This document shows positions 16,116-40,825 of a stretch of 64,000 nucleotides of DNA, in pieces. The position numbers were made by a program, and so were the translations under genes. Position 1 is the stretch's first letter, and every line of letters starts with the position of its first letter. The notes under the pieces are model-generated. The model was not told the origin of the DNA. It did not search any database and worked only from the letters and a program-made list of their open reading frames with translations. This DNA is from Vulcanimicrobiota bacterium. GTDB lineage: Bacteria > Vulcanimicrobiota > Xenobia > Xenobiales > JADMJV01. The stretch is from NCBI GenBank assembly GCA_050250895.1, contig JBFWNU010000002.1, positions 320,001 to 384,000 on the forward strand, given 5' to 3'.

Positions 16116-16178
16116 CATGTTCACAGAAAGTTTACCCTTGGCGAGAGTTCCTCCGTTATGGTCCCTCCAGGAGGAAGA

Positions 16179-18341
16179 ATGATCTCTGCTTTGACCTCGG
16201 TTCGAAACGCCCAGGCGTTTGGGACCAAACTGGCCGCACGGGAGGGGGAAATCGCGGGGCCACAGGATACGGCGCAGCTATCGCGAGAGATAGCGTCGCT
16301 AGACTCCAAGTTGCCCGGGCATGTGGAAGGGGAAGTGCTGGTCAAGCTGCACCGCGGCTTCCAGGCTGACGAGGCCTTCGTAGGCGACTATGGAGCCACC
16401 CTGGTCGAGGAATTCGACATTCCTCCCGACATGCGCCAGAAGATCGGCGGCAAGATGGTCCATCTCCGCTTGCCCGAGGGCGTGACCACGGCCGAAGCCA
16501 TGGTCGCCATGGGGCGCGACGGCCGGGTGGCCTACGCTTGCGCCAACGAACTCCTGTCCCACTACGGAGACCCGGTCTTTCCTCCCGATCTCGACACCCG
16601 GCTGTGGGGTCTGCACAACACCGGGCAAGACGAAGGCACGGCCGACGCCGACATCGATGCCCCCGAAGCCTGGGCTATCACCACCGGCAAGGGCCTGCAA
16701 GAAAACGGCCCGGTCATTGCCGTGATCGATACCGGCATCGACACCGGCCACCCTGATCTCAGGGCCAACCTCTGGACCAACACCGGCGAGATTCCTGGCG
16801 ACGGCATCGACAACGACGGCAACGGCGTCATCGACGATGTGCACGGCTACAACGCCATCGACGGTAGCGGCAATCCCTATGATGACAATCGCCACGGCAC
16901 GCACTGCGCCGGCACCATCGCCGCCGATGGCACCAACGGAGAGGGCGTGGTCGGGGTGAACCACAAGGCCCAGCTGATGGCCGTCAAGTTCCTCTCGGGC
17001 CAGGGTAGCGGCACCACCGCCGACGCCGTGAAAGGTCTGCTCTATGCCGACCGCATGGGAGCCCGCATCACCTCGAACTCGTGGGGAGGCGGTGGCTTCA
17101 ATGAAGCCCTGCGCGACACCCTCGAGGCCTCTCACGCTCTGCACATCTTCGCGGCCGGCAACTCGAACAACGACAACGATGCCCGCGCCTCCTATCCGGC
17201 TTCGTACGACCTCGACAATATCGTCTCGGTGGCCGCCAGCGACCGCAACGACCAGCGGGCCAGCTTCTCGAACTATGGGGCTACCAGCGTCGACCTGGCC
17301 GCCCCGGGCAAGACCATCTTCTCGACGGTGCCGGGAGGCCGCTACGCCACGCTCAGCGGCACCTCCATGGCCACGCCCCACGTGGCCGGCGTGGCCGGAC
17401 TCATCGCCAGCGCCTATCCCGAGGCCAGCAACGACGACATCAAGGGTCGCTTGCTCAATGGCGTCGACCGTCTACCCCAGTTGACCAACAAAGTCCTTAG
17501 CGGGGGTCGCCTCAACGCCGCCAACTCGCTCGAAGACGACCACATCGCCCCGGGAGCTCCCAACGATTTTCGCACCGAGGCCGCTGGCGCGCGCACGGTG
17601 CGCCTGAGCTGGACGGCCACCGGTGACGACGGGTGGTGTGGTCGCGCCTCGGCTTACCAGCTGCGCCATGCCGACCGGCCTATTGTAGAAGGCCCGGCGG
17701 GAGAGTCCGAAGTCGGCTTTGATCAGGCCACCACGCTGGTCGCTCCCAAGCCGTCCGAAACCGGCACCATCGAGCAGGTGATGCTTAACCTGCCGCCCTC
17801 GGGTCAACCTCGGACCCTCCACTTCGCCCTCAAAGTGGCCGACAACCTCGGCAATCTCTCGGAGATCCGCACGGCCACCGCCCAGATTCCCGCCTCGACC
17901 GTGGCCTTTCAGGACAATTTTGACAACAACCAGCGGGGCTGGACGGCCGAAGCCGATTGGGCCCGCATCGACGAGCCTGGTCGAGGCAAAATCTGGACCG
18001 ACAGTCCCAACGGCAACTACGCCAACGAGCGCAACGCCTCGCTGGTGTCGCCCCCCATCAATCTGGCGGCCATTCGCAACAGCGCGCTACTTTTTGACAC
18101 TCGCTACGAGATCGAGCAGAGCTTCGACCGCCTCCACCTCGAGGTCTCCACCGACAACAAGATCTGGAACAAGCTCGAGGACTTCACCGGCCGCAGCGAG
18201 TGGAAGCAGCATCTGGTCGACCTCTCGCGCTACGACGGCCAGACGGTCCGCCTGCGCTTTCGACTCGAAAGCGACAGCTCGGTGGTGCGCGACGGTTTCT
18301 ATCTAGACAATATCTCGGTCGTCGGCGACCCCAACATCTAG
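16179..18341 (+). CDS. S8 subtilase paralog 1 (pro-domain, catalytic domain, Fn3-like and C-terminal jelly-roll domains)
   Basis: [16 protein letters not shown] and GTSMATPHV motifs; AGGAGG RBS before ATG 16179. Confidence 0.95.
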   Translation: MISALTSVRNAQAFGTKLAAREGEIAGPQDTAQLSREIASLDSKLPGHVEGEVLVKLHRGFQADEAFVGDYGATLVEEFDIPPDMRQKIGGKMVHLRLPEGVTTAEAMVAMGRDGRVAYACANELLSHYGDPVFPPDLDTRLWGLHNTGQDEGTADADIDAPEAWAITTGKGLQENGPVIAVIDTGIDTGHPDLRANLWTNTGEIPGDGIDNDGNGVIDDVHGYNAIDGSGNPYDDNRHGTHCAGTIAADGTNGEGVVGVNHKAQLMAVKFLSGQGSGTTADAVKGLLYADRMGARITSNSWGGGGFNEALRDTLEASHALHIFAAGNSNNDNDARASYPASYDLDNIVSVAASDRNDQRASFSNYGATSVDLAAPGKTIFSTVPGGRYATLSGTSMATPHVAGVAGLIASAYPEASNDDIKGRLLNGVDRLPQLTNKVLSGGRLNAANSLEDDHIAPGAPNDFRTEAAGARTVRLSWTATGDDGWCGRASAYQLRHADRPIVEGPAGESEVGFDQATTLVAPKPSETGTIEQVMLNLPPSGQPRTLHFALKVADNLGNLSEIRTATAQIPASTVAFQDNFDNNQRGWTAEADWARIDEPGRGKIWTDSPNGNYANERNASLVSPPINLAAIRNSALLFDTRYEIEQSFDRLHLEVSTDNKIWNKLEDFTGRSEWKQHLVDLSRYDGQTVRLRFRLESDSSVVRDGFYLDNISVVGDPNI

Positions 18342-22397: not shown

Positions 22398-22579
22398 GGG
22401 CAAGTCCTTTGAAAGCTGAGATTTTACCAACGAACATGACGTGTTTAGGATACGAATTTTGAGAATATTCCACGAAGACATTCATTTGAAGGAACGAAAG
22501 TTTGCTCTGGTTTTAGTTGTGGATTCTCTTGAAAGCCGATAATATGGAGCTAACTACTCGCCAGAGAGGATTTCTGGAT

Positions 22580-22927
22580 GTGACGTTAGGTCAACGAATT
22601 CGTCATCTAAGGATGCAAAAAGGCTGGAGTCAACGCCAACTCGAGGAGAAGGCCGGCTTAGAAGGCCGCAATCTCACGAGGTATGAAAGCGACAAGGTTC
22701 GCCCTCGTTTGAGAGTCTTGAAGCAGCTTGCATCCGCACTCCAAGTCAGCGTTGACGAGCTGACCACCGACGAAAACGAACGGCCCGAGCAGCAGTTCCA
22801 AGACAAGGAACTTCTCAACCAGTTCCTGGCCGTAGAGAAGATGGACGAGCAAGACAGGATGGCCATCAAGTGTCTGCTGCAAGCCATGATCCTCAACAAC
22901 AAGATAAGGGACCTGCAAACCGCCTGA
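22580..22927 (+). CDS. XRE-family HTH transcriptional regulator
   Basis: LGQRIRHLR..KGWSQRQL...LTRYE..P..L..LA.AL.VS.DEL pattern; GAGAGGA RBS. Confidence 0.9.
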   Translation: MTLGQRIRHLRMQKGWSQRQLEEKAGLEGRNLTRYESDKVRPRLRVLKQLASALQVSVDELTTDENERPEQQFQDKELLNQFLAVEKMDEQDRMAIKCLLQAMILNNKIRDLQTA

Positions 22928-23187
22928 TGTTGAAGCTGCCTGATGAAATACTGCGATTGGCTGGCAAGGGCGACTCGGAATTGCCTAGCTATATCAGCGC
23001 TCTCGTGGTGCTGGACCTCTTCCGCCAGCGCTCGATCTCGGCTGGCAAAGCGGCCGAAGTACTTGGCCTGGACCGCCAGGGCTTCATGGATATCGCTGAC
23101 GAGCATGGCATTCCGCTGGTGAACCTGACCGGCTCCGAAGCCGCCGAGGAGTGGGAGGCCTGGCGAGCCCACAAAGAGCGCGATTGA
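22927..23187 (+). CDS. UPF0175-family antitoxin
   Basis: LF..RSISAGKAAEVLGL.R..F......GIP pattern; TGATG coupling to the XRE gene. Confidence 0.85.
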   Translation: MLKLPDEILRLAGKGDSELPSYISALVVLDLFRQRSISAGKAAEVLGLDRQGFMDIADEHGIPLVNLTGSEAAEEWEAWRAHKERD

Positions 23188-23669
23188 GGATCGTTTCCGA
23201 TGCGGGGCCGATCATCGGCTACGCTCGCACTGGCTACCTTCACCTGTTGCAGGGCATCTTCGGTGAGGTGCTTATCCCTGAGCAGGTCGAGCGGGAGATT
23301 CTGGCAGGGGGCGACCGCCCGGGAGCGCGTGAGATTCGAGAGTTCGACTGGATTCGCACCGTGGCGATCAATAACCAGCGGACCTTTGAGTCCTGCCGAG
23401 CACATCTCGGATCTGGCGAGAGCGCGGCCATCGCGCTGGCGGAGGAACTGCAGCTGCCTCTGCTGCTTGAGGATGGAGCGGGTCGACGCACGGCCAGGAC
23501 TTTCAAAGTCCCGGTTGTCATTGGCACCAAGACGGTCGCCGAGGAGGCCCTCCACCAGCAACTGATTCCCCGTGCCAGTGATCTTCTCGAGGCATTGCGA
23601 TTCCAGCGCTACCGCCTCAGCAAGGCCGTCGTCAACGAGATTCTGACCCAGGTTGCGCAGCCCCACTGA
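23184..23669 (+). CDS. DUF3368/PIN-domain toxin
   Basis: IVSDAGPII, IPEQVERE, LGSGESAAIALA and LLED..GR..A motifs; TTGA coupling. Confidence 0.85.
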   Translation: MRIVSDAGPIIGYARTGYLHLLQGIFGEVLIPEQVEREILAGGDRPGAREIREFDWIRTVAINNQRTFESCRAHLGSGESAAIALAEELQLPLLLEDGAGRRTARTFKVPVVIGTKTVAEEALHQQLIPRASDLLEALRFQRYRLSKAVVNEILTQVAQPH

Positions 23670-23734: not shown

Positions 23735-23820
23735 GCGGCGAAGCCGCGCCAGGGCTACGACGCGCAGCGTCGAGTACCTCAAAGACCCGAGCCGTAGCGC
23801 AGCGAAGGCTCGCTCCCCTC
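23735..23820 (-). repeat. ~86-nt triple-hairpin element, copy A, immediately 3' of the HNH gene
   Basis: Reverse complement aligns to 33931-34017 (about 5 mismatches and 1 gap over the last ~53 nt). Confidence 0.8.
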
Positions 23821-23833
23821 TGGCGCAGCCCCA

Positions 23834-24964
23834 TCAGCTCTCGAACTTGCGGCCCTCGCGGTCTCGGAAGGTCAGCCCGTCCGGGGCCGTCCCTTCGATG
23901 AAGAGAAAGCCGTCGTGGACATTGCGATGGCAACCCGTGCACAGGAAAATCAGGTTGGCCGGCATCGTCAGGCCGCCCAGAGCGAAGAAGCGGATGTGGT
24001 GGGATTGCAACCAGATATGGTTCGGGCAGTCGGGAGTCTGGCAGCAGTAGCAGTCGCGAATCTTCAGGGCTTCGGTCTGGGCGGGCGTGAGCCCGCGGGC
24101 GTCAGGATTGAACTTCAGCTTCGGCGAGACCTCCCAATGGGCGTCGGCCTGGCGAGCGAGCTGCACGCTAGCGTTGCCGGGGCACTCTTCACCATCGACT
24201 GCCGTGGTGGCCATGAAGAACTCGTCCCCCGGGGGACGAAGGCCCAGCTCCTGAGCCAACTCATGGGCCGTCTGGATGGGTCCGGCCAATTTGCGCCGGC
24301 GCGAGGCGGCAACCGCAGCGGCACGGGCGCGCATCGCTTCGAGGTCTTTGTCTTTGACCGGAGCGGCTTGTAGACGCTGGGCGAGCAAATAGGCCAGGGC
24401 CTCTTTGAGTTCGACCTTGCGCCCCAGCTCGAGGGAAAGCGAATGCAAGACCAACTTCAGCAGTTCGCTCGTCTCGGGGTCGAGATGCAAAGTGATTTCT
24501 TCGCTCTCAATCTTGGTCGGGGGCAGTTCGCCGGGTAGGCCCCCTTTGGGAGTGGCGGCCACCAGTCGGCGAATCACCGAGGTGGAATAAAGCGAAGCCA
24601 GCTCGAGCCAAAGCTTTTCGGTTTCGGGGGTGGCTTTGCTGGCGATCTCGCGCAGCTTGGCCCAACCGATGTCGCCCCGCTCAGCGGCCCCGGTGAGCTG
24701 AGGCAGGACTTCGAGTTGGCGGGCCACGCGGCGACAGGCGTTGGCCTCTTTCTTGGTCACTCCCAGCAGGCGGATGGCGTAGTGGATGGGGCCGCTGCAG
24801 CCGTAGTCTTGATAGCCACCGGTGGCTTGAAGGGCCAGCAGGCACCGTCCCAGGAGGATGCGGTGAATGACCAGGCCGGTGGCCGAGCGGCGGGCCATGT
24901 GGTGGAGGGCTTCGGGTTCGAGGGCGATGAGGGCTTCGCGGGTGTGTTCTTGAAGAGGTTTCAT
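23834..24964 (-). CDS. HNH endonuclease with long helical N-terminal region (DUF222-like architecture)
   Basis: C-terminal RD...CQTPDC...HHI...GG.T...NL..LC..CH..VH motif. Confidence 0.88.
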   Translation of the reverse strand: MKPLQEHTREALIALEPEALHHMARRSATGLVIHRILLGRCLLALQATGGYQDYGCSGPIHYAIRLLGVTKKEANACRRVARQLEVLPQLTGAAERGDIGWAKLREIASKATPETEKLWLELASLYSTSVIRRLVAATPKGGLPGELPPTKIESEEITLHLDPETSELLKLVLHSLSLELGRKVELKEALAYLLAQRLQAAPVKDKDLEAMRARAAAVAASRRRKLAGPIQTAHELAQELGLRPPGDEFFMATTAVDGEECPGNASVQLARQADAHWEVSPKLKFNPDARGLTPAQTEALKIRDCYCCQTPDCPNHIWLQSHHIRFFALGGLTMPANLIFLCTGCHRNVHDGFLFIEGTAPDGLTFRDREGRKFES

Positions 24965-26836: not shown

Positions 26837-29047
26837 ATGATCACAACCATCAAGAGCAGTCCGACTATTGCTCCTCACATCGCGGCCAAAGCCGCCGAGC
26901 CCCTGGACCGCTTCGAGCCCTCCCGCGATTCTTTCTCGGTGGCCGAGGCCATCGATGCTTCTTCGGCCGAGGCGGCTTCGCTGCGCCTGAAGATGGCCGA
27001 CGAGGAGTATGTCCCCGGAGAAGTGCTGGTCAGGATGGCCCCCGGCCTCAAGGCCGCCAGTCTCGAAACTTTCGCCGCCGATTATGGCGCCAAGGTGAAG
27101 TGCCACTTCGATGTGCCTGCCAGCATGCTGGCCGCCATCGGGGGCGAGATGATGTCTTTGTCGTTGCCCGAGAGTCTCGATGTGGCCGGAGCGCTGGCCG
27201 CCATGCGGCGCGACCCGCGGGTGGCGGTGGCCGAGTCCAACGACATTTTGCACGCCGTGGTCGACCACCCCGAGCCGGTGACCCCCAACGATCTCGACGG
27301 CAAGCTCTGGGGGCTTTCCAACACCGGTCAAGACGGCGGCATCGCCGGGGTCGACTGCAAGGCCAGCCTGGCCTGGAACATCAGTACCGGCACCAACGAG
27401 GGTCCGGTGGTGGCGGTCATCGACACCGGAGTCGACTTCGAGCATCGCGATCTGCGCAACAACATCTGGCGCAATCCCAATGAGGCGGCCGACGGGGCTG
27501 ATACCGACGGCAACGGGGTGATTGACGATCTGGTCGGCTACAACGCCATCGACGACAGCGGCAACCCCACCGACGAGAACGGTCACGGCACTCATTGCGC
27601 CGGCACGATCGGGGCCGAGGGCAACAACGGAACCGGAGTAGTTGGCGTCAACTGGCGAGCCCGGGTCATGCCGTTGCGCTTCCTGGGCGCGACCGGTTCG
27701 GGCACCACCGAAGACTCGATCAAGTGCGTGCTCTACGCCTCGAAGATGGGGGCCAAGATCACCTCCAACTCGTGGGCCGGCTTCAAATACAACCAGGTTC
27801 TCTATGATGCGATGGCCGCTTCGCCCGCGCTGCATGTGTGCGCCGCCGGCAACGAAGGCTACAACAACGATGTGCGCCCGGTGTATCCGGCTTCCTACGA
27901 GTTGGACAACATCATTTCGGTGGCCGCTCATGATCGCCAGGACCGCCTGGCCAGCTTCTCCAACAGCGGCTCGGGCTCGGTGGATCTGGCCGCTCCCGGC
28001 GTGGACATCTACTCGACCAAGCCGAGTAACGCCTACCAGAGCTTGAGCGGCACCTCCATGGCCACGCCCCATGTGGCCGGCGTGGCTACGCTGGTCGCTT
28101 CAGCCTACCCCGATGCCACGCCCGAGGACATCAAGCGGCGGATCCTCTCGGGGGTCGATCAGATGCCCCAGCCGTGGGCCGGTCGTCTGACCACGGGTGG
28201 TCGCCTCAACGCCCTCAAAGCGCTCGAGAACGACCAGGTCGCACCGGCTCCGGCCTCCGACCTGGCGGTCAAGCAGATCGGCACCGAGTCGGCCCAGCTG
28301 CAGTGGACGGCCACCGGTGACGACGGGACCGAGGGGCACGCTAATGGATACGAGCTGCGCTACTCTGACCATCCCATCGTGGACGGCGAGGCCGCGCCTG
28401 GTCAGGTCGGATTTGACCAGGCCACCAAGGTGCGCATCGAGGCTCCCAAAGACTCGGGTCAACTCGAGTCGACGGTGGTCAAGTTCGCTCCTTCGGGCCA
28501 GGAGCGCAAGATGTATTTCTCTCTGAAAGTCATCGATAACGTCGGCAACCGCTCGCCGGCCCAGACCGTCGAGGTGGCCGTGCCCACCACGCCAGTGGTG
28601 CTCGAGGATAACATGGACGGCCAGCGCTCCGAATGGACCGCCGATGCTGGCTGGGCTCGTGTCGAGGTTGAAGGTCGCGGTCAGGTCTGGACCGATAGCC
28701 CGGCTGGTGATTACGACGCCAACTACGACGGGGCCATCACTTCCAAGGAGTTCTCTCTGGAAGGCCTCAAGAACAGCAAGCTCAACATCGACCTGAAATA
28801 TGATGTCGAGCAGAAGCACGACGCCGTTACCGTCGAGGTCTACGGCAGCAGTTGGTGGATGCGTAAATGGCGACAGGTAGCTTCTTTCGACGGCATTGAC
28901 GCTTGGAAGACTCACCAGATCGACATCTCGAAGTATGACGGACAGAAAGACCTCAAGGTCAGAGTGCGCCTCGAGACCGACAGTTCTCGTCACCGTGACG
29001 GGGTCTATGTCGACAACGTCGTCATCACCGGCGAGCCCGACAAATGA
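26837..29047 (+). CDS. S8 subtilase paralog 2
   Basis: [12 protein letters not shown] and GTSMATPHV motifs; same domain order as paralogs 1 and 3. Confidence 0.95.
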
Positions 29048-31388: not shown

Positions 31389-33716
31389 ATGATGATTTCC
31401 CAAATCCGCCCTCAGACCTATGTCTCGTCCACGCCCAGCGCTCGCGCTGCCGCTCCCGCGGCCCAGCAAGAAGCCGCTGCCCCTTCCGAGTCGGTGTCCC
31501 TTTCCGGCGCCGCCCCTCGGGTCGACCTGGCTGGCGTTCTTTCCGCCACCGCCAAAGAAGCTGCTTCGCTCGCTTCCAAACTTCCTGAGCACGTCGAAGG
31601 CGAAGTGCTCGTCAAGCTCGGCCCCAACGCCTCGCTCGACGCCATGACCGACTTCGCCAGCGACTACGGCGCGACGATGATCGAGAAGTTCGATGTTCCC
31701 CAGAACATGTTCAAAGCTTTCAACGGTGAGCTCGTTCACCTGAAGCTGCCCGCCGGCATGTCCACCGCCCAGGCGATGGCCGCCATGGACAAAGACCCCC
31801 GCGTCCAGTACGCCGCTTCCAACGACATCCTGCACACCCTCGGCAACGCCGAGCCGGTGGTTCCCAATGACCTCGACAGCCGCCTCTGGGGCATGAACAA
31901 CACCGGTCAGACCGGCGGAACCGCCGATGCCGACATCGACGCTCCTGAAGCCTGGTCGATCACGACCGGCAAAGGCGCCGCCGAGAACGGCCCCGTCATC
32001 GCCGTCATCGACACCGGCGTCGACTACAGCCACCCCGACCTCCAGGCCAACGTCTGGGTCAACCCTAACGAGATTCCTGGCGACGGCATCGACAACGACA
32101 ACAACGGCGTCATCGACGACGTGCACGGCTACAACGCCACCAACGACAGCGGCGACCCGATGGACGACAACGACCATGGCTCGCACTGCTCCGGCACCAT
32201 CGCCGGCCGCGGCAACAACGGCGAAGGCGTCGTTGGCGTGAACTGGAACGCCCAGGTTATGGGTGTCAAGTTCCTCACCGGTTCCGGCTCCGGCACCCTG
32301 GCCGACGCCATCAAAGGCGTGATGTATGCCAGCCAGAACGGCGCCCGCATCACCTCCAACAGCTGGGGTGGCGGTGGCTTCAACCAGGCCCTCAAAGATG
32401 CTCTGGCCGCTTCCCCGGCTCTGCACATCTTCGCGGCTGGTAACGAGAGCAACGACGACGACCGTCGTCCTACCTACCCGAGCGCTTTCGACCTCGACAA
32501 TATCGTCTCGGTCGCCGCTACCGACCACAACGACCAGCTGGCCAGTTTCTCGAACTACGGCGCCACCAGCGTCGACCTGGCTGCCCCTGGCGTGGACATT
32601 CTGTCCTCGACCCCCGGTGGCACCTACCAGAGCTTCAGCGGAACCTCGATGGCCACTCCTCACGTGGCTGGCGTGGCTGGCCTCATCGTCAGCCAGTTCC
32701 CCGAGATCAGCAACGAAGAGCTCAAGTCGCGCCTGATGAACAGCGTCGACAAGAAGCCCCAGCTCGAAGGCCGCGTGCTTTCCGGTGGTCGCCTCAACGC
32801 CTTCAACGCTCTCGAAGAAGACAACATCGCCCCGGGCGCTCCCAACGACTTCCGTGGCACTTCCGAAGCCCCCGGCGGCGCGGTCCTCAACTTCACCGCC
32901 ACCGGTGACGACGGCTGGTGCGGCCAGGCCAACGGCTACGTGCTGCGCGTCAGCGACCGTCCCATCGTCGAGGGTGAGGCCGCCGAAGGCCAGACCAGCT
33001 TCGACGCCGCTAGCCCCATCGCCACCAACGCCCCCAGCGTGACCGGCACCATCGAGAACATCCCCGTGTCCCTGCCCCTCTCGGGCCAGGAGCGCACCTA
33101 CCACTTCGCGATGAAGGTGAAAGACAACGTCGGCAACCTGAGCGAGATCCGCACCACCAGCGTCACCGTTCCGGCCGCGACCGTAGCCTTCGAAGACACC
33201 ATCGACGGCGACACCAGCAACTGGAGCACCGAGAGCTGGGGTCAGGTGGAAGTCGACGGCCGCAAAGCCTGGACCGACTCCCCGAACGGCGACTACGGCA
33301 ACGACCAGAACAGCGCGCTGACCACCCGCGAGATCAGCCTCGGCCAACTGCGCGGCAGCACCTTGATGTTCGACTCGAAGTACGCTCTCGAGAACCGCTA
33401 CGACAAAGTCGCGGTCGAGATCGGTGAAGTCGCTCCTCCTCCGCCGCAGGATCCCGGTCAGGGCGGCGGCGGCCAGACCAAAGAGGTCATCAGCTGGAAC
33501 AAAGTTGCCGAGTTTACCGGCAGCTCCGACTGGGCCACCAACTCCATCGACCTGTCGGCTTACGATGGCAAGAACGTCCAGATCCGTTTCCGCCTCACCT
33601 CCGACGGTTCCGTCAACCAGGACGGCTTCTACCTGGACAACGTCGTCATCGCTGGCGACCGCGCTCCCGAGCAGCCTCCTCAGCAGCCCCCCCAGCAGCC
33701 CCCCACCCAGGGCTAA
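31389..33716 (+). CDS. S8 subtilase paralog 3 with Pro/Gln-rich tail
   Basis: VIDTG, HGSHCSG and GTSMATPHV motifs; AGGAG RBS; strong codon bias. Confidence 0.95.
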   Translation: MMISQIRPQTYVSSTPSARAAAPAAQQEAAAPSESVSLSGAAPRVDLAGVLSATAKEAASLASKLPEHVEGEVLVKLGPNASLDAMTDFASDYGATMIEKFDVPQNMFKAFNGELVHLKLPAGMSTAQAMAAMDKDPRVQYAASNDILHTLGNAEPVVPNDLDSRLWGMNNTGQTGGTADADIDAPEAWSITTGKGAAENGPVIAVIDTGVDYSHPDLQANVWVNPNEIPGDGIDNDNNGVIDDVHGYNATNDSGDPMDDNDHGSHCSGTIAGRGNNGEGVVGVNWNAQVMGVKFLTGSGSGTLADAIKGVMYASQNGARITSNSWGGGGFNQALKDALAASPALHIFAAGNESNDDDRRPTYPSAFDLDNIVSVAATDHNDQLASFSNYGATSVDLAAPGVDILSSTPGGTYQSFSGTSMATPHVAGVAGLIVSQFPEISNEELKSRLMNSVDKKPQLEGRVLSGGRLNAFNALEEDNIAPGAPNDFRGTSEAPGGAVLNFTATGDDGWCGQANGYVLRVSDRPIVEGEAAEGQTSFDAASPIATNAPSVTGTIENIPVSLPLSGQERTYHFAMKVKDNVGNLSEIRTTSVTVPAATVAFEDTIDGDTSNWSTESWGQVEVDGRKAWTDSPNGDYGNDQNSALTTREISLGQLRGSTLMFDSKYALENRYDKVAVEIGEVAPPPPQDPGQGGGGQTKEVISWNKVAEFTGSSDWATNSIDLSAYDGKNVQIRFRLTSDGSVNQDGFYLDNVVIAGDRAPEQPPQQPPQQPPTQG

Positions 33717-33778
33717 GCAGAGGCTAGTCGCCTAGCGTCGAGACGGTAGACGTCAGACGGTAGACGGTAGCTAACAGG

Positions 33779-33806
33779 ACCCCGTGACTTCGGTCACGGG
33801 GTTTTT
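33779..33806 (+). terminator. Intrinsic terminator after S8 paralog 3
   Basis: ACCCCGTGAC-TTCG-GTCACGGGGT-TTTT. Confidence 0.88.
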
Positions 33807-33815
33807 CGCTTGTTC

Positions 33816-34017
33816 TCGGCCTGCGGCCGACAAGGAGCTGTTTCGGCCTGCGGCCGACAAGGAGCGTCGGCTTCGCCGACGAGATGGGAGCTCTTGCTAC
33901 GCTCGAGAGATGGGAGCGGAGCGGAGCTCCGAGATGGGAGCGAGTTGAGCTGTCGCTCAACTCGAGGTCTTGAGGTAGTCGACGCTTCGCGTCGTAACTC
34001 TGGGGCGGCTTCGCCGC
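33816..34017. repeat. Cluster of REP-like mini-hairpins, including copy B (33931-34017) of the HNH-linked element
   Basis: TCGGCCTGCGGCCGACAAGGAGC x2 (33816, 33843), GAGATGGGAGC x3, GTCGGC-TTC-GCCGAC, CGACGC-TTC-GCGTCG, GCGGC-TTC-GCCGC. Confidence 0.8.
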
Positions 34018-34055
34018 GGAACCGCCCTGATGGCCCTACCGGCGATTCGGGCAGC

Positions 34056-35035
34056 CCACACTGCCGAATGGCTCGCCCGCCTCCGCTTGGGCGGGGCCGG
34101 CAACTCGCCACGGCTACTTCCGGGCGGAAGACAGGCTGGTCGCTAGATTTGGCCCTCCCGCCGCGCTCGCGCAAGCCCGCGCCAGGCCACACTGCCGAAT
34201 GGCTCGCCCGCCTCCGCCGGGGCGGGGTCGGCAACTCGCCCCGGCCACTTCCGCGCGGAAGACAGGTCGCTAGTTCGGCCGGCCCCGCCGTGTGCGCCGC
34301 ACAGTCGGGTTTGACCAGTGTACGGCGCAAGTGTGCGCCGCACAGCTCGGCTTGCCTGGTGTGCGGCGCACAATCCGGTCCACCGCCGAGCCCGCCTCCG
34401 CCGGGGCGGGGCCGGCAACTCGCCACGGCCACTTCCGGGCGGAAGACAGGCTGGTCGCTAGATTTGGCCCTCCCGCCGCGCTCGCCCAAGCCCGCGGGGG
34501 TTCGCCAGGCCACACTGCCGAATGGCTCGCCCGCCTCCGCCGGGGCGGGGTCGGCAACTCGCCCCGGCCACTTCCGCGCGGAAGACAGGTCGCTAGATTT
34601 GGCCCGCCCCGCCGTGTGCGCCGCACAGTCGGGTTTGACCAGTGTACGGCGCAAGTGTGCGCCGCACAGCTCGGCTTGCCTGGTGTGCGGCGCACAATCC
34701 GGCCCACCGCCCAGCCCGCCTCCGCCGGGGCGGGGCCGGCAACTCGCCACGGCTACTTCCGGGCGGAAGACAGGCTGGTCGCTAGATTTGGCCCTCCCGC
34801 CGCGCTCGCGCAAGCCCGCGGCAGGCCACACTGCCGAATGGCCAGCCGCCTCCGCCGGGGCGGGGTCGGCAACTCGCCCCGGCCACTTCCGCGCGGAAGA
34901 CAGGTCGCTAGATTTGGCCCGCCCCGCCGTGTGCGCCGCACAGTCGGGTTTGACCAGTGGACGGCGCAAGTGTGCGCCGCACAGCTCGGCTTGCCTGGTG
35001 TGCGGCGCACAATCCGGCCCACCGCCCAGCCCGCC
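34056..35035. repeat. Hierarchical tandem repeat: three 315-324 bp units, each with two ~80-bp core variants and palindromes
   Basis: CTTCCGSGCGGAAG at 34117, 34248, 34432, 34571, 34756 and 34886; TGTGCG-S-CGCACA three times per unit. Confidence 0.92.
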
Positions 35036-35120
35036 CGCCCCTCGCCGGGCCTGGCCGGGCAGCAGCTGAAAGCGAGCAGAGGGCGAAGGCCCGACCCCGG
35101 CAGATAGCGAAGTAGAAAGG

Positions 35121-35735
35121 ATGGATCCGCTGCGCCAGAAGGCTAGTTCGGCAGGCTTTGACCTGTCGGATCCGTTCCTACGCTACCCGCTTTTCACCCG
35201 GCTAGCGGGGTTGGCTCATGAGGCTTTCGATGAAGAAGACCTGGAGGGCTTTTGCGGGGTGATGCGTTCGCTTTTGTCTCTGACCGAGTCGACTCACAAT
35301 CCGGTGTTGCGTGAGTGCGCCAGGGCCCTGTTGGGGCGGCCGGCCTGGATCGCGCCGGTCTTGGCCGAAGTCGATGCCCAGCTCGAGCATCCGGCCCTGG
35401 TCGAGAACCTGGCCTTCGAGCTCAACTCTCTGTGCCAAGAGGCGGTGGAGAGACAAGAGTGGGACCTGTTCGTCTTCAGGTTGACGCTGCTCGACTCGCT
35501 GGCCGAGAAAAGGCCCAGTCCGGCCATCGGCGAGGGGATCTCGCGTCTGCTTGGATTGGTGCTGCCCAAGTTGCCGCCTGACGCCCACCTGGCGGCCGCC
35601 CTCGAGGCGGGGCGCGGTTTGCAGCGGCGAGGCTTTCCGCAGCCGAAGCATTGGGGTGAGTCGCTCCGGCGCCGGCTCGAGCTGGCTCCGCCCGAGGAAG
35701 CGAACCAGCTCAAGGCCGAACTCGAACAACTCTAG
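35121..35735 (+). CDS. Hypothetical helical protein
   Basis: AAAGG before ATG; in an operon with the downstream GATase. Confidence 0.65.
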   Translation: MDPLRQKASSAGFDLSDPFLRYPLFTRLAGLAHEAFDEEDLEGFCGVMRSLLSLTESTHNPVLRECARALLGRPAWIAPVLAEVDAQLEHPALVENLAFELNSLCQEAVERQEWDLFVFRLTLLDSLAEKRPSPAIGEGISRLLGLVLPKLPPDAHLAAALEAGRGLQRRGFPQPKHWGESLRRRLELAPPEEANQLKAELEQL

Positions 35736-35737
35736 CC

Positions 35738-36589
35738 ATGTGTCGCTTTGTGGCCTACGTGGGCCGTCCGCTATTGATCAGCCAGTTGGTGACCGAGCCG
35801 GTCCACTCGCTCATCCATCAGAGCTACCACGCCCTCGAACGACCCGAACCCCTCAACGGCGACGGGTTCGGAGTGGCCTGGTACTGTCCCGGATGCCAAC
35901 CAGAGCCGGCGCTCTTTCGCGAGATTACGCCCGCCTGGAGCAACGAGAATTTGCGCTCGATCGCCCGCGTCACCACGAGTGATTGCATCCTGGCGCACGT
36001 GCGAGCCGCCTCGCCCGGCACTGGCGTGCACTATCTCAACTGCCACCCCTTCGCCATCGAGCACTTGACATTCATGCACAACGGCAGCCTGGCCGGCTTT
36101 CGCGAATGGAAGCGGCGGCTCATCAATCTGCTCTCGGATGAGGCCTTCGCGGCCATTCGGGGATCGACCGATTCCGAGCATGCCTTTGCCTTGTTTTGGG
36201 ACCTTTATCGGCGCTGCCGGGGGGCTGGCTGGGAGCGGCTCTGCGAAGGGGCCCTGGCCACCATCGCCGAACTCGAGCGACTCCGGTTCGAGGCGGGCGT
36301 CGAGGACAGTTCGTTCATGAACTTCGTGGTCTGCGACGGCGAATCCATCGTGGCCTCACGCTACTCCAGCCAGGGAGACGACGGGGCCAGTCTTCATTAC
36401 GTTAGTGGGCGCGAACTGCGCTGCCAGGAAGGTCTCTATGAACATGAGCCCGGTGACGAGACCGATTTCGTGCTGGTAGCCTCGGAGGAGACGACCCCCG
36501 GGTTCTGCTGGCAGGTCGTGCCCGACAATCATCTGCTCATTGCTTCGCGCACCGGCGAGGCGCGTTTAATGCCGATCGTGCTGCCCTGA
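35738..36589 (+). CDS. Class II glutamine amidotransferase (EgtC/YafJ-like)
   Basis: N-terminal MCR, DGFGVAWY, AHVRAA, NCHPF, HNG and TDSE motifs. Confidence 0.92.
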   Translation: MCRFVAYVGRPLLISQLVTEPVHSLIHQSYHALERPEPLNGDGFGVAWYCPGCQPEPALFREITPAWSNENLRSIARVTTSDCILAHVRAASPGTGVHYLNCHPFAIEHLTFMHNGSLAGFREWKRRLINLLSDEAFAAIRGSTDSEHAFALFWDLYRRCRGAGWERLCEGALATIAELERLRFEAGVEDSSFMNFVVCDGESIVASRYSSQGDDGASLHYVSGRELRCQEGLYEHEPGDETDFVLVASEETTPGFCWQVVPDNHLLIASRTGEARLMPIVLP

Positions 36590-38057: not shown

Positions 38058-39224
38058 TTACTTGAGCAGCAATTGCAGGCTTGCGGTCTCGCCGTGCTTA
38101 CTATGCCGCAGAGCGGTGAAATGCAGCGACTCCGGGGTGACGCCTACAGGCAGAAAGAAGACCAGGGTGCCTCCGCTGCCAGCCCCGGCGTTGACCAGGG
38201 TGTCGCGTGGGATGCCGCCCTCGAGCGCCCAGCTGGCCACCACCTGGTTATGCAAGCCCGAACCGCGCTCTTTGCCGTCGCTGGCGGTCAGGCGCCAGTT
38301 CGGCTGACTGACACCGAAGTGCAGCTTGTCCGAGGTGAGATTCTTGGCTTCGAGTGTCACCAAGATCACATGTTGACGTTTTTTGCCGTCCTGAAAGACG
38401 TACTTGCGCATATAGGCGAAGTGCTTCTGGCCATCCTCAGAGGTCAGGCGCTTGGTCCAGGGCAGCTTCTCGTATTCTTCCATGGTGGTTACGTCAGCGA
38501 GCTTAGAGACCCGCATCTGCCAGTGGCCGTTGCTCACCCACGAGCCGGCCGGACCCTTGGCCTCGAGGGGCTTTTGGGCGCTGCCGGGCTTGCCTTTGGC
38601 GGGAGTCGCAAAGACGGTGGCGTTTTGTTGACCTTGCCCCTTCGGACTCTTGACCTTGCCGATGTTGACGACCAGGCTCTGCGTCTCTCCGTCGTGGCTG
38701 TGGCGCAGCGATTCGAAAAAGAGGGCGCCGGCCTGATCGTAGTCAGGAATGAAGAAGACCAGAGTCCCTTTGCCCGTCTTGCCGCCGCCCAGGGGTGCGT
38801 CCTTGGGCATGCCGGACTTAAGATGGCGCATGGCCACGAGTTGATTAAAGGTTGAAGGAGCGAAGGTCTGGCCATCATCGCACCGCAGGCGCCAGTTTGG
38901 ACTGGTGACGCCAAAATCGCGGGGCTCACCACTCAGGTTCTTGGCTTCGACGGGCACCAGGCAGACTCGCAGATGCTTGCCGAAGACCGACTCTTTGAGG
39001 AACTTCATGTGCGCCTCGCGTTTGCCGGCCTCGAAGGGCTTCCAGTCGAGCTTTTCATACTCGGCCAGGTCGTTGGCGTAGGCGACCGGTCCCACCTTGA
39101 GGGTCCAATGGCCGTTAGTCACACACTCACCGGCCGGGCCTTCGCCGCGGTGGGGCTTGTCCCACCCCCCCGGAGCGGCCAGCGCCCAGGTCGAGGCCAG
39201 CAGTAGCAGCAGTAATACTCTCAT
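38058..39224 (-). CDS. Secreted protein with two tandem DUF4352-like Ig domains
   Basis: Signal peptide; duplicated NGHW...EYEKL.W...F...EAKNL...FGV..PNWRL...GTLVFF. Confidence 0.75.
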   Translation of the reverse strand: MRVLLLLLLASTWALAAPGGWDKPHRGEGPAGECVTNGHWTLKVGPVAYANDLAEYEKLDWKPFEAGKREAHMKFLKESVFGKHLRVCLVPVEAKNLSGEPRDFGVTSPNWRLRCDDGQTFAPSTFNQLVAMRHLKSGMPKDAPLGGGKTGKGTLVFFIPDYDQAGALFFESLRHSHDGETQSLVVNIGKVKSPKGQGQQNATVFATPAKGKPGSAQKPLEAKGPAGSWVSNGHWQMRVSKLADVTTMEEYEKLPWTKRLTSEDGQKHFAYMRKYVFQDGKKRQHVILVTLEAKNLTSDKLHFGVSQPNWRLTASDGKERGSGLHNQVVASWALEGGIPRDTLVNAGAGSGGTLVFFLPVGVTPESLHFTALRHSKHGETASLQLLLK

Positions 39225-40825
39225 GAATCGTCCCCTTTTCTTGTGAAGATGAACAAAGAATGCAATTTGGCTCGATCGGCGGCTTTGGCCGGACGCAGGC
39301 CCTCAGAGGTCAAGACGAGTTCCGAGTGGTTCACCAGTTCAAAGCCGGCCTGCTTCATTTGCGAGACGACCTCGTCAGCGGTGATGTTGCCGTGATCGGG
39401 GTCGACGATGGGATTGTTTTCGGACCAGTCCAGGATGACCATCCTACCCTCCGGTTTGAGGCTGCGGGCAATCGAAGCGTAGAAACGGACAACCTGCTCG
39501 AGAGGAGCCGAAGCGCCGGCCCGGGCGCGCGGGTAGTGGAAATAGTGAACCTGTCCCAGATAGGCGAGATCCAGACTGCGGTCGGGCAGCAGGCAGTCGG
39601 TGACGTCGTGAAGTACCAGTCTCACATTGTCGAGAGGCGGCTGGAAGGGCCGCTGGAAGAAATAGTCATCTTCATCAGGCGCGGGGGCGGGCCGCATCCA
39701 GGCCTGGATTGACTGCAGGGCCGAGGCGGAAACATCGGTGGCCCAGACCTGTCCGGTGGTTCCTACCGCTCGCGAGAAGTCGTCGAGCGTAGCTCCTGAG
39801 CCGGTGCCGATGTCGGCGATGACCATGCCCGGCTTGAGTCCGAGCAGCTTGGTCAGGCCCGCGAATCGATCTCGCCGCCCCTTGCGCGAAAGCTCGGCCA
39901 GTCGCTCGAGGGGGATGAAATAGGCTTTGACGCGTTCGGGCGTGGCCTCATAGCCAAGCAGTCGGCCAGGGGGGGCCTCGATAGCCAGGCGATGAGCCCG
40001 ATCCTCTGCGGGGGTGGGTACGGGAGTGGTTCGGTCCGAGAGCAGTTGGAAGTAGGGGGCGGGGTTGCGCTCCATCCGGGCGGAGGAGTTGGGGCTGGGG
40101 TCGGGGCCCACCGACTTCACCAGGCGAAAGCCCGTCTTGGACGCCACGGCCATGTCCTGATCGGGATAGAGGCGGAAACGATTGCTGCAGCGCCACCAAC
40201 TGGGGTGCTCATCGGCGGCGCCCCCACGGATGACGCGGGCGCCGTTGACCTCGCCGAGGTCTTCGCGACCATCGTTGGCGCGGTATGGGTAAGTCGCGTA
40301 GCGCGACGAGCACCATTCCCATTGATGGCCGACCATCGCCAGGCAACCGACCGGTGTCGGTTGGTCGAGTTTGCTACGGTCGAGTTGCTCGCCCCAGGGA
40401 AAGCGCCGGCCGTCGCTGCCTCTGGCCGCTCGTTCCCACTGAGCCTCGCTGGGTAGCCGCCCGCCGGCCCAGCGACAGTAAGCTTCGGCAGCCTTCCAGG
40501 TCACGCCCAGCACCGGGTCTTGCTCGCGACCCGACTCGGGCTCGAAACTCTCTGAGTTTCTGGCAAAGGCCCGTCCGCGAAAGCCACCCTCGGCCAGAAA
40601 GCGAGCGAACTCTTGCTGGCTGACAGGCTTGATGCTGATGAAGTAGGGCTGGAGTTCTACGTGCTGGGCCGGAGCTTCGTCGGGCTCGGCCTGCTCGCTG
40701 CCCATGGTGAAGACACCTGCAGGCACATACACCATGCCGGCTGGTGGGGTAGGGGACTGGTTGGAAGAGCGCGAGCATCCGCCCAGGGCCAATAGCAGCA
40801 AGACGATGATGAAGCGCTCCCCCAC
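39221..40825 (-). CDS. Lipoprotein fusing an FGE-sulfatase (SUMF1-type) domain and a class I SAM methyltransferase
   Basis: LALGG-C lipobox; F.MGS, RLPSEAQWERAARG..FPWG, WEW, RGG and GFR motifs; C-terminal ADIGTGSG. Confidence 0.82.
   Translation of the reverse strand: MGERFIIVLLLLALGGCSRSSNQSPTPPAGMVYVPAGVFTMGSEQAEPDEAPAQHVELQPYFISIKPVSQQEFARFLAEGGFRGRAFARNSESFEPESGREQDPVLGVTWKAAEAYCRWAGGRLPSEAQWERAARGSDGRRFPWGEQLDRSKLDQPTPVGCLAMVGHQWEWCSSRYATYPYRANDGREDLGEVNGARVIRGGAADEHPSWWRCSNRFRLYPDQDMAVASKTGFRLVKSVGPDPSPNSSARMERNPAPYFQLLSDRTTPVPTPAEDRAHRLAIEAPPGRLLGYEATPERVKAYFIPLERLAELSRKGRRDRFAGLTKLLGLKPGMVIADIGTGSGATLDDFSRAVGTTGQVWATDVSASALQSIQAWMRPAPAPDEDDYFFQRPFQPPLDNVRLVLHDVTDCLLPDRSLDLAYLGQVHYFHYPRARAGASAPLEQVVRFYASIARSLKPEGRMVILDWSENNPIVDPDHGNITADEVVSQMKQAGFELVNHSELVLTSEGLRPAKAADRAKLHSLFIFTRKGDDS

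Follow-up and report, generated by a model that had tools for sequence, protein, structure and literature searches.

REPs (repetitive extragenic palindromic sequences) are abundant extragenic palindromes, often found in bacterial interspersed mosaic elements (BIMEs) with alternating orientation, as the relevant part of PMC2817692 has it, and the palindromes are imperfect and ~20-40 nt long in the definition given in PMC3733652. For Pseudomonas fluorescens SBW25, the passages of Bertels and Rainey (2011; PMC3116915) on doublets describe REPINs, each a pair of inverted REPs with a spacer between them and conserved better than singlets are; some occur as ordered tandem clusters in which element and flanks are repeated as one, with four REPINs over >700 bp in the largest, and REPINs are named as targets of insertion sequences (ISs). 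What Di Nocera et al. (2013; PMC3733652) report on placement puts REPs mainly between unidirectional and convergent open reading frames (ORFs), and CGTC-type REPs appear there without a dedicated transposase. The portions of the REP literature concerned with distribution have tagged REPs mostly from Proteobacteria, with some from other phyla, and tie the spread of REPs to REP-associated tyrosine transposases (RAYTs). REP13E12 is named in PMC10589994 as a repeat class of mycobacteria. We report here on a palindromic tandem array at 34075-35035 of a 64,000-nt stretch of DNA (hereafter, the window; positions 320001-384000 of contig C2 of genome G000), which is probably a mosaic cluster of REP/REPIN/BIME-like kind: two palindromic module families would have met, and the resulting block would have been duplicated in tandem. 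The host genome (9.5 Mb, 63% G+C, 17 contigs, 99.6% complete) belongs to the Eremiobacterota, and contigs are given below by their C numbers. Binding of integration host factor (IHF), DNA gyrase, or Pol I is a further trait of BIMEs, and miniature inverted-repeat transposable elements (MITEs; e.g., Correia elements) and BOX elements are likewise intergenic repeats of small size that are non-autonomous, modular in build, and inverted at their ends.

Structure of the array

A single tandem array with a period of 315, 3.0 copies, and 95% matches (Tandem Repeats Finder [TRF] score 1752) was found at 34075-35035, which agrees with the ~1-kb array that an earlier note on the window had placed at 34056-35035. 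That note had also counted six cores of two alternating variants, forming three super-units of 315-324 bp. A repeat search of the window reproduced the six copies, of a 94-nt core, with exactly the start-to-start spacings that had been given (131/184/139/185/130); the two variants did alternate, and the super-units were 315, 324, and 315+ nt. When aligned, the super-units had a column identity of 96% and differed by ~13 substitution columns and three indels (8, 1, and 1 nt), and they are thus diverged copies rather than a simple assembler duplication. The components, in window coordinates, are as follows:

34075-34389, 34390-34713, and 34714-35035, no strand assigned: super-units 1, 2, and 3, each with core A, short linker, core B, and 83-nt module
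34074-34146 (A1), 34390-34461 (A2), and 34714-34785 (A3), + strand: core A copies
34205-34273 (B1), 34528-34596 (B2), and 34846-34911 (B3), + strand: core B copies
34117-34130, 34248-34261, 34432-34445, 34571-34584, 34756-34769, and 34886-34899, no strand assigned: six CTTCCGSGCGGAAG dyads (CTTCC-N4-GGAAG)
34291-34373, + strand: 83-nt module copy 1 (nhmmer, 68.8 bits, E 2e-18)
34615-34697, + strand: 83-nt module copy 2 (nhmmer)
34930-35012, + strand: 83-nt module copy 3 (nhmmer), with TGGACGG in one 13-mer

In addition to the three perfect TGTGCG-S-CGCACA dyads previously described, every long linker contained another, degenerate dyad, TGTACGGCGCAAG (in unit 3, TGGACGGCGCAAG), which brings the total to 12 instead of the nine first counted. 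The sequences between the cores are themselves repeated at 96% identity, and the array is therefore not a clustered regularly interspaced short palindromic repeat (CRISPR) locus, as had been judged; cas genes were not searched for. Genome-wide BLASTN, which the note had asked for, showed the 80-bp core, its dyad excepted, to be near-private to the locus: full-length matches to the cores were confined to the array, and only partial matches of 24-60 nt were found elsewhere. The neighbour motif GCAACTCGCC lay near just 12 of the 413 CTTCC dyads of the genome (see below), which makes the 80-bp core essentially local, with no wider core family.

The array region is non-coding. ORFs crossing it were open in several frames on both strands (the longest being 419 aa on the plus and 391 aa on the minus strand), but their codon log-odds, trained on the genome's long ORFs, were -0.10 to -0.18, versus 0.15-0.32 for the flanking genes, and none had a Pfam family above cut-off. 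The translated repeat protein that the earlier note had named as a possible refutation is not supported.

Two dispersed palindrome families

The 83-nt module is a genome-wide repeat. One super-unit compared with the genome gave 70 matches, nearly all on query positions 17-110, and iterated nhmmer searches located the module at 63 places (53 full length) at 27 loci. Its form is TGTGCGCCGCACA-N15-TGTRCGGCGCAAG-TGTGCGCCGCACA-N15-TGTRCGGCGCACA, with four 13-mers (TGTRCGSCGYACA) in all and a variable 15-nt spacer in each half. The centre bases of the 13-mers alternate C,G,C,G in 44-46 of the 46 distinct copies; each half of the module is thus a 41-nt hairpin unit, in which inverted 13-mers flank the 15-nt spacer, and the whole is a fixed dimer, a REPIN-like doublet of doublets. 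Lone 41-nt units exist too (e.g., at C1:2447577). Between loci, the 13-mers were identical at 12.0-12.7 of 13 positions (92-98%), whereas the spacers were identical at only 6.7-7.9 of 15 (45-52%). The 13-mer had 167 genomic matches, versus 0-1 for reversed or rearranged/shuffled controls, and because 161 of these were inside 83-nt modules, with the remaining six resembling truncated copies, the unit is the doublet and not the singlet.

Many of the loci are tandem arrays of modules alternating with filler specific to the locus, for instance at C3:362227-363528 (six copies), C3:769587-771282 (eight), and C13:50178-52134 (five, with a period of 314), and near-identical copies with homologous flanks occurred on different contigs, e.g., at C8:51896 and C9:116781. 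Module orientation varied relative to the neighbouring genes, and a length of 83 nt is not divisible by three. At several loci, the start of the first module is 33-82 nt past the stop codon of a gene whose orientation it shares. The flanking genes were diverse (peptidoglycan amidase, acyltransferase, TPR proteins, MsrA, a SET-domain protein, and pilus-like proteins), and those that recurred were common families only: a seven-member group at five loci, a three-member group (both only partly scanned against Pfam), and subtilases. Fourteen flanking or internal ORFs were searched against Pfam, and those inside module arrays were PhyH, clostripain-like, DUF6036-like, or without a family. Separately, one 83-nt module is interrupted within its first spacer by an IS3-family element (transposase HTH, PF01527) at C6:492363-493738 (the module being split at 492363/493673), with an apparent 3-bp duplication, AGG, read by eye on both sides.

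The second family is that of the CTTCC dyads. CTTCC-N4-GGAAG occurred at 413 genomic sites, at ~124 loci on many contigs, versus 10-21 sites for three rearranged controls, with the consensus cgACTTCCg..cGGAAGT over all 413. Such excesses over controls exclude chance for both the 13-mer and the dyad. Like the modules, the dyads often form tandem arrays. Dyads were within 500 nt of a module at 13 of the 27 module loci.

Both families avoid genes. By admittedly crude gene calls, in which 6,282 genes take up 78.5% of the genome, every one of the 63 modules was intergenic, as were 386 of the 413 dyads. Convergent regions, which make up 22% of intergenic regions of at least 300 bp (24% by bases), accounted for 14 of the 29 module-bearing regions (P 0.0016) and 44 of the 103 dyad-bearing ones (P 2e-6), in agreement with the placement of REPs in the relevant section of PMC3733652. 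Depletion of modules or dyads from divergent regions was not significant.

Comparison with known repeat systems

REPs are expected in more than 100 extragenic copies, and the 167 13-mers and 413 dyads, versus 0-21 for controls, exceed that figure. The 83-nt module has inverted short repeats around a poorer-conserved spacer, predominant doublets, an extragenic-only distribution, and IS hits, all of which the parts of PMC3116915 on REPINs describe; the tandem clusters are likewise ordered repeats that include the flanks and are of similar size, at >700 bp there and ~960 bp here. The differences are that the 13-nt repeat, 15-nt spacer, and 41-nt unit are much smaller, that no RAYT was found in the genome, that the host is of the Eremiobacterota, and that the dispersed form is a fixed 83-nt dimer with a ...GCAAG/TGTGCG junction.

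Regular palindromic units in alternating orientation, linker motifs, and tandem clusters are the features of a BIME, and the array has all of them. Escherichia coli BIMEs, as far as PMC2817692 and PMC3116915 describe them, share the alternating palindromic units, the regular spacing, the mosaics with short motifs, and the intergenic tandem arrays, but the sequences are unrelated, and the mosaic here draws on at least four families, namely the 13-mer module, the CTTCC dyad, a hairpin repeat called module X (described below), and GGCACC-N-GGTGCC. The CGTC-tagged REPs treated in PMC3733652 resemble the present families in being abundant palindromes, apparently without a dedicated transposase, mostly in unidirectional and convergent gaps; neither palindrome here, however, ends in CGTC or GTAG. 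A MITE would have terminal inverted repeats, a target-site duplication, and a related autonomous IS. The modules do have inverted 13-mer ends; no target-site duplication was seen at their borders, nor an autonomous IS with matching ends, since no 13-mer outside the modules could mark a parent element.

DUF222-HNH genes and the CTTCC dyad

The earlier note had suggested a link between the array and an HNH element. The HNH gene of the window is

23834-24964, - strand: 376-aa ORF of subfamily A with a weak C-terminal HNH domain (PF01844, E 0.0015, 19.1 bits; cut-off 21.4)

and is ~9 kb from the array, with no dyad within 3 kb; a link through this gene is not supported. A paralogous subfamily is a different matter. 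By tblastn, the genome has at least 35 DUF222-HNH-type nuclease genes in three subfamilies: A, with at least eight copies at 85-90% identity; C, with ~12 copies at ~35% identity; and the more distant B, with 17 near-full copies at 74-86% amino-acid identity. Subfamily B is an element of ~1.32 kb with 75-83% nucleotide identity (e.g., C3:583349-584665), and its protein of ~395-418 aa has both DUF222 (PF02720, 24.9 bits; cut-off 24.4) and a C-terminal HNH domain (PF01844, 31.9 bits; cut-off 21.4), which, with its multiple copies, puts it in the DUF222-HNH (REP13E12-like) class. This candidate partner gene resembles REP13E12 and the DUF222-HNH repeated elements of mycobacteria in being multicopy, ~1.3 kb long, and of DUF222 plus C-terminal HNH build; the difference is that subfamily B is bordered by a palindrome amplified to 413 copies. 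The NCBIfam IscB model matched the HNH segment only (26 bits; cut-off 175). An RNA element in the subfamily B leader was considered and rejected, as neither the leader nor the locus had an Rfam match.

A CTTCC-N4-GGAAG dyad was present upstream of all 17 subfamily B copies, 169-383 nt from the BLAST block. In the 12 copies that were aligned, the dyad is 9-24 nt before the conserved leader, and the sequence beyond it is unrelated between copies; the right border is the stop codon, and only 3 of the 17 have a dyad on that side. Ten of the 17 have at least two upstream dyads, and up to 11, with periods of ~124-132 nt, and a subfamily B gene is at the very edge of seven of the nine multi-dyad arrays. 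In 15 of the 17 there is also a dyad inside the ORF, as a conserved island (window identity 0.85) in an indel-rich linker (column identity 0.25-0.41). The left-border palindromes differ between subfamilies, being TCCCCCGGGGGA for A and CACACGTGTG or GACCCGCGCGGGTC for C; these occur 13, 8, and 5 times, about as often as the genes, and are thus not amplified.

DUF222-HNH copies are numerous in the relatives too, many of them lying at the ends of contigs, and two relatives are enriched in another dyad, GTCCCC-N-GGGGAC (38 versus 9 for the control in G020, and 8 versus 1 in G011). It is upstream of HNH-family genes by 135 nt (G020:C132), 208 nt (G020:C157), and ~470 nt (G011:C345), with further copies inside and just past the G011:C345 gene. 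Short-period GTCCCC-N0-5-GGGGAC arrays were also noted at C3:103848-104179, C41:48-445, C90:30131-30262, and C133:117-469 of G020 and at C345:1113-3278 of G011; many of these are at the ends of contigs and beside or within DUF222-HNH genes.

Two readings can be put on these data: (a) the HNH gene may home beside pre-existing dyads, or (b) the nuclease may also generate and spread them. The position of the gene at the edge of seven of nine arrays, together with the change of palindrome with HNH lineage, favours functional recognition that could include (b). Extended in that direction, the HNH enzyme would recognise its subfamily's palindrome and insert its gene 9-24 nt away, and repeated cut-and-repair would seed both polar tandem arrays and dispersed copies, in a RAYT-independent, REPtron-like partnership; this is a possibility that we hold only tentatively. 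The 83-nt module would then be a second, orphan family with another partner. Neither (a) nor (b) touches it; HNH genes were within 6 kb of a module at only 2 of the 27 loci, which is about chance level. In the literature that was searched, no report of a palindrome partnership with DUF222-HNH genes was found.

Immediate surroundings of the array

The gap of 1,404 bp between the upstream subtilase gene and the downstream 204-aa ORF is mostly occupied by the array. The other features of the region are as follows:

31389-33716, + strand: upstream gene, a subtilase with Peptidase_S8 (PF00082, E 1.1e-61), a fervidolysin-like prodomain, and a MAM-like domain; coding score 0.32
33779-33808, + strand: intrinsic-terminator-like hairpin, CCCCGTGAC-TTCG-GTCACGGGG, then a T run, read from the sequence; the terminator scan gave 33786-33803 plus a T tail
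33811-34020, + strand: module X, with two 27-nt units of hairpin plus AAGGAGC, three of hairpin plus GAGATGGGAGC, and then three further hairpins
35121-35735, + strand: downstream gene, a 204-aa ORF without a Pfam family
35738-36589, + strand: class-II glutamine amidotransferase gene, next after the 204-aa ORF

The terminator-like hairpin at ~33779-33808 would end the subtilase transcription unit. Module X, in which TRF found a period of 27 in two copies, is a dispersed repeat in its own right: its 3' part had 77 genome copies (nhmmer), the whole stretch had 60-83 BLAST partners in other intergenic regions, and its GAGAWGGGAGC motif occurred 192 times in the genome, versus six for the control. 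One copy (23735-23794, - strand) is 43 nt downstream of the window HNH gene. Module X is found 43-119 nt downstream of, and co-oriented with, three of the ~8 HNH subfamily A genes, and the motif between its hairpins is Shine-Dalgarno-like.

Relatives and metagenomes

Neither family was found amplified in the 40 relatives compared. The 26-nt module junction (at most two mismatches) occurred 54 times in G000 and not at all in 40 relatives, including those of the same genus, and neither the junction nor a relaxed hairpin pattern had a match in 185,579 species genomes. ACTTCC-N4-GGAAGT was found 160 times in G000 but only 0-4 times per relative, with 0-3 for the control. Only one of the relatives, G001, has the 204-aa ORF, which is 36% identical and without repeats; no shared gene order was obvious at that locus when the list of ORFs, rather than the proteins, was compared, and no comparison of a filled with an empty site was possible. 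The sole non-self homologue of the ORF otherwise (82% identical) is in a metagenome-assembled genome (MAG) named Candidatus Eremiobacteraeota.

Four metagenome contigs (L031-L034) matched the hairpin pattern once each, L034 on both strands, and the three that were read (L031, L033, and L034) have single, unrelated terminator- or operator-like hairpins. On L034, from an unrelated organism, two copies of the array's 13-mer palindrome at 1500-1545 bracket a promoter-like stretch upstream of an ORF that is phasin-like by its sequence; the arrangement is operator-like and suggests that the same palindrome may be a protein-binding site elsewhere.

Among Logan contigs from four sludge and wastewater runs (share at most 0.19 each), a 92-98% relative is represented by DNA contigs that extend out of the subtilase gene and into module X, there shorter by one 27-nt unit, and that end at the edges of the repeat region. 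Such stops in independent samples are consistent with a true repeat, but are silent on unit number and transcription. RNA-library contigs cover both flanking genes and module X (one at 33862-33994); none covers 34050-35035, which is uninformative on transcription and copy number. A joint from 33771 to 34331 on one contig (side 34) was judged unreliable.

Origin of the array and alternative explanations

The CTTCC dyads and the 83-nt modules, two unrelated families, are both dispersed, intergenic, and biased towards convergent regions, and the 13-mers are near-invariant, all of which argues for a mosaic repeat; the BIME-like alternative among those offered by the earlier note is thus the one that we favour, both palindromic components being genome-wide, intergenic, and multi-copy, in tandem arrays with other modules. 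A ~130-nt dyad unit would have acquired an 83-nt module in its linker, and the resulting two-unit block of ~315 bp would have been copied three times in tandem by unequal recombination or replication slippage; it is this tandem copying that would account for the hierarchy in the array. The palindromes may work by folding into hairpins or cruciforms when DNA or RNA is single-stranded, or by binding dimers, and a trans-acting enzyme would recognise them and spread or maintain them. For the dyad family, the best candidate partner would be the multicopy DUF222-HNH element, and no candidate was found for the 83-nt module. The best fit is an array of lineage-specific palindromes that appears to be REP/REPIN/BIME-type in its working and not a device peculiar to its locus. 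Any benefit to the host, such as 3'-end hairpins aiding termination or mRNA stability as proposed for REPs, would be secondary and is unproven.

Several observations weigh against this account. The palindromes fall outside the REP size range (13 nt for TGTRCGSCGYACA and 14-16 nt for ACTTCC-N4-GGAAGT) and are mostly perfect; neither a GTAG nor a CGTC tag was found in the consensus of the 413 dyads or in the column consensus of the 46 distinct modules; and a six-frame search of the genome for a RAYT/Y1 transposase (PF01797) had 0 matches at E <=0.001, the same search, as a control, being positive in 6 of 14 other genomes. Because of these three features, we do not file the array as a member of a RAYT-REP family. 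No target-site duplication or empty site could be defined at module borders, and all-against-all BLASTP of 212 flanking proteins from the 27 loci revealed no recurrent transposase-like neighbour of the module. Nor was compensatory covariation detected among module copies for any hairpin model: the only variable 13-mer position, 10 (C or T in the centre-C orientation), varied independently of its partner, with five T:A doubles versus 6.5 expected. Most of the relatives are short-read MAGs in hundreds of contigs, and the two dyad matches of G001 are 148-172 nt from contig ends; because repeats break contigs, the apparent lineage specificity may be partly an assembly effect. As for the part assigned to the HNH enzyme, no subfamily B gene is at the array locus, 107 of the ~124 dyad loci are without one, and the variable gap of 9-24 nt favours reading (a), in which the gene landed beside dyads, over their being spread by it.

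Among other explanations, the one that survives best, although unlikely, is that these are host-serving 3'-end elements, amplified for their usefulness and neither mobile nor selfish in any part; between convergent genes they would terminate transcription, insulate, or stabilise mRNA. Enrichment in convergent regions and the presence of GC-rich hairpins would be expected of such elements, and the same role has been proposed for REPs in parts of the REP literature. At this locus, however, a canonical terminator already precedes the array, and arrays of 3 to 11 units exceed what termination needs. Moreover, the families are absent or unamplified in 40 relatives with the same kinds of genes, and the near-identical copies with homologous flanks on different contigs, such as C8:51896 and C9:116781, also speak against this reading.

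Quite improbable is a protein-loading array, either parS/centromere-like, as the earlier note had it, or a nucleoid-protein platform, in which the palindromes would be dimer-binding sites on double-stranded DNA. The dyads are perfect, and most of their loops are self-complementary (AGCT 122, GCGC 47, and ACGT 21 of the 413; GTGC/GCAC makes up 113); the 13-mers do not vary, whereas the spacers change in sequence but not in length; and the 13-mer pair of L034 is operator-like in bracketing a promoter-like stretch. Canonical parS, on the other hand, is a 16-bp palindrome present in few copies clustered near the origin, and the CTTCC dyad differs from what we take to be its consensus. The six TTCC-N4-GGAA dyads claimed for the array are present, but their likeness to parS does not stand, as the 413 dyads at ~124 loci and the 167 13-mers at 27 loci are spread over most contigs with no single-region cluster. 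The sites avoid coding DNA only and prefer gene 3' ends over promoters, and isolated 13-mers are nearly absent (6 of 167), unlike in a regulon.

It is very improbable that the array is transcribed and processed into small structured hairpin RNAs, perhaps guided by or linked to the HNH element. One super-unit did fold better than its shuffles on both strands (z -3.9 plus and -2.6 minus), the modules at several loci are co-oriented 33-82 nt past a stop codon, and an RNA-library contig covers module X at 33862-33994. The minimum free energy fold of the module was one long rod, in which A1 pairs with A4 and A2 with A3. Against this, Rfam 15 had no match at the gathering threshold over the whole window, and a permissive search of 33600-35200 gave only five miRNA-like hairpin matches of ~20 bits (E 0.3-0.65; gathering score 72-73); a tRNA search found none. 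Besides the lack of compensatory changes already mentioned, the module matches both strands almost equally, a canonical terminator separates the subtilase gene from the array, and the window HNH gene is ~9 kb off. Loop-loop pairing was also considered and rejected, as pairing of loop 1 with loop 2 scored 3.6 within copies versus 5.3 between copies.

That the array encodes a repeat protein or is an assembly artefact is hardly credible: long ORFs do cross it, and 315 and 324, the lengths of its units, can be divided by three, but those ORFs are open in several frames on both strands with coding scores that are all negative and no Pfam family that passes its cut-off. The 83-nt module is found in either orientation relative to neighbouring genes and its length is not divisible by three, the units differ by ~13 substitutions and three indels, and in independent metagenome contigs module X adjoins the same subtilase gene, with breaks at the array borders as expected of a true repeat.

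Wider significance

As a single locus, the array is of moderate interest; the association of HNH genes with palindromes and the repeat load in an uncultured phylum raise that interest. REP, REPIN, and BIME repeats rank with the commonest non-coding features that bacterial genomes have. The same REP architecture occurs here in an uncultured Eremiobacterota genome without a detected RAYT. The DUF222-HNH class is repeated in mycobacteria and other Terrabacteria, and no account of its movement was found in the literature that was searched. If the HNH link is causal, the class would gain a recognisable DNA partner and a testable mechanism, and if the REPtron-like partnership is true, genome repeats of REP/BIME type would have a new enzymatic route of origin. 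Across the genome, 482 intergenic regions share repeats, totalling ~222 kb. Because such arrays break short-read assemblies, MAGs would lack them systematically, and estimates of genome size and repeat content for such lineages are likely too low.

Other repeats and neighbouring genes

Runs of N are present within or beside arrays at C2:439300-439375 and C3:363300-363325, representing masked stretches or assembly gaps, and some arrays may thus be longer than read. The further palindrome family, GGCACC-N2-4-GGTGCC, has 75 genomic occurrences versus seven for the control, and often takes the form of TACGGCGCCACC..GTGCCGAATTCGGC blocks beside other modules.

Three paralogous subtilases with a C-terminal MAM-like domain are found inside 18 kb of the window (16158-18341, 26837-29047, and 31389-33716, all on the + strand), and subtilase genes also border 83-nt modules at C3:177246-181493 and C7:212540-213745. 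Downstream of the array is a fused FGE-sulfatase-like/methyltransferase gene (39221-40825, - strand), and the mix of its domains with the glutamine amidotransferase recalls, presumably, thiol-histidine synthesis of the ergothioneine or ovothiol type. The window HNH gene adjoins a cluster at 22517-23669 with the look of a toxin-antitoxin system, consisting of an HTH_3/HTH_31 protein, a UPF0175 protein, and a DUF3368/PIN-like ORF.

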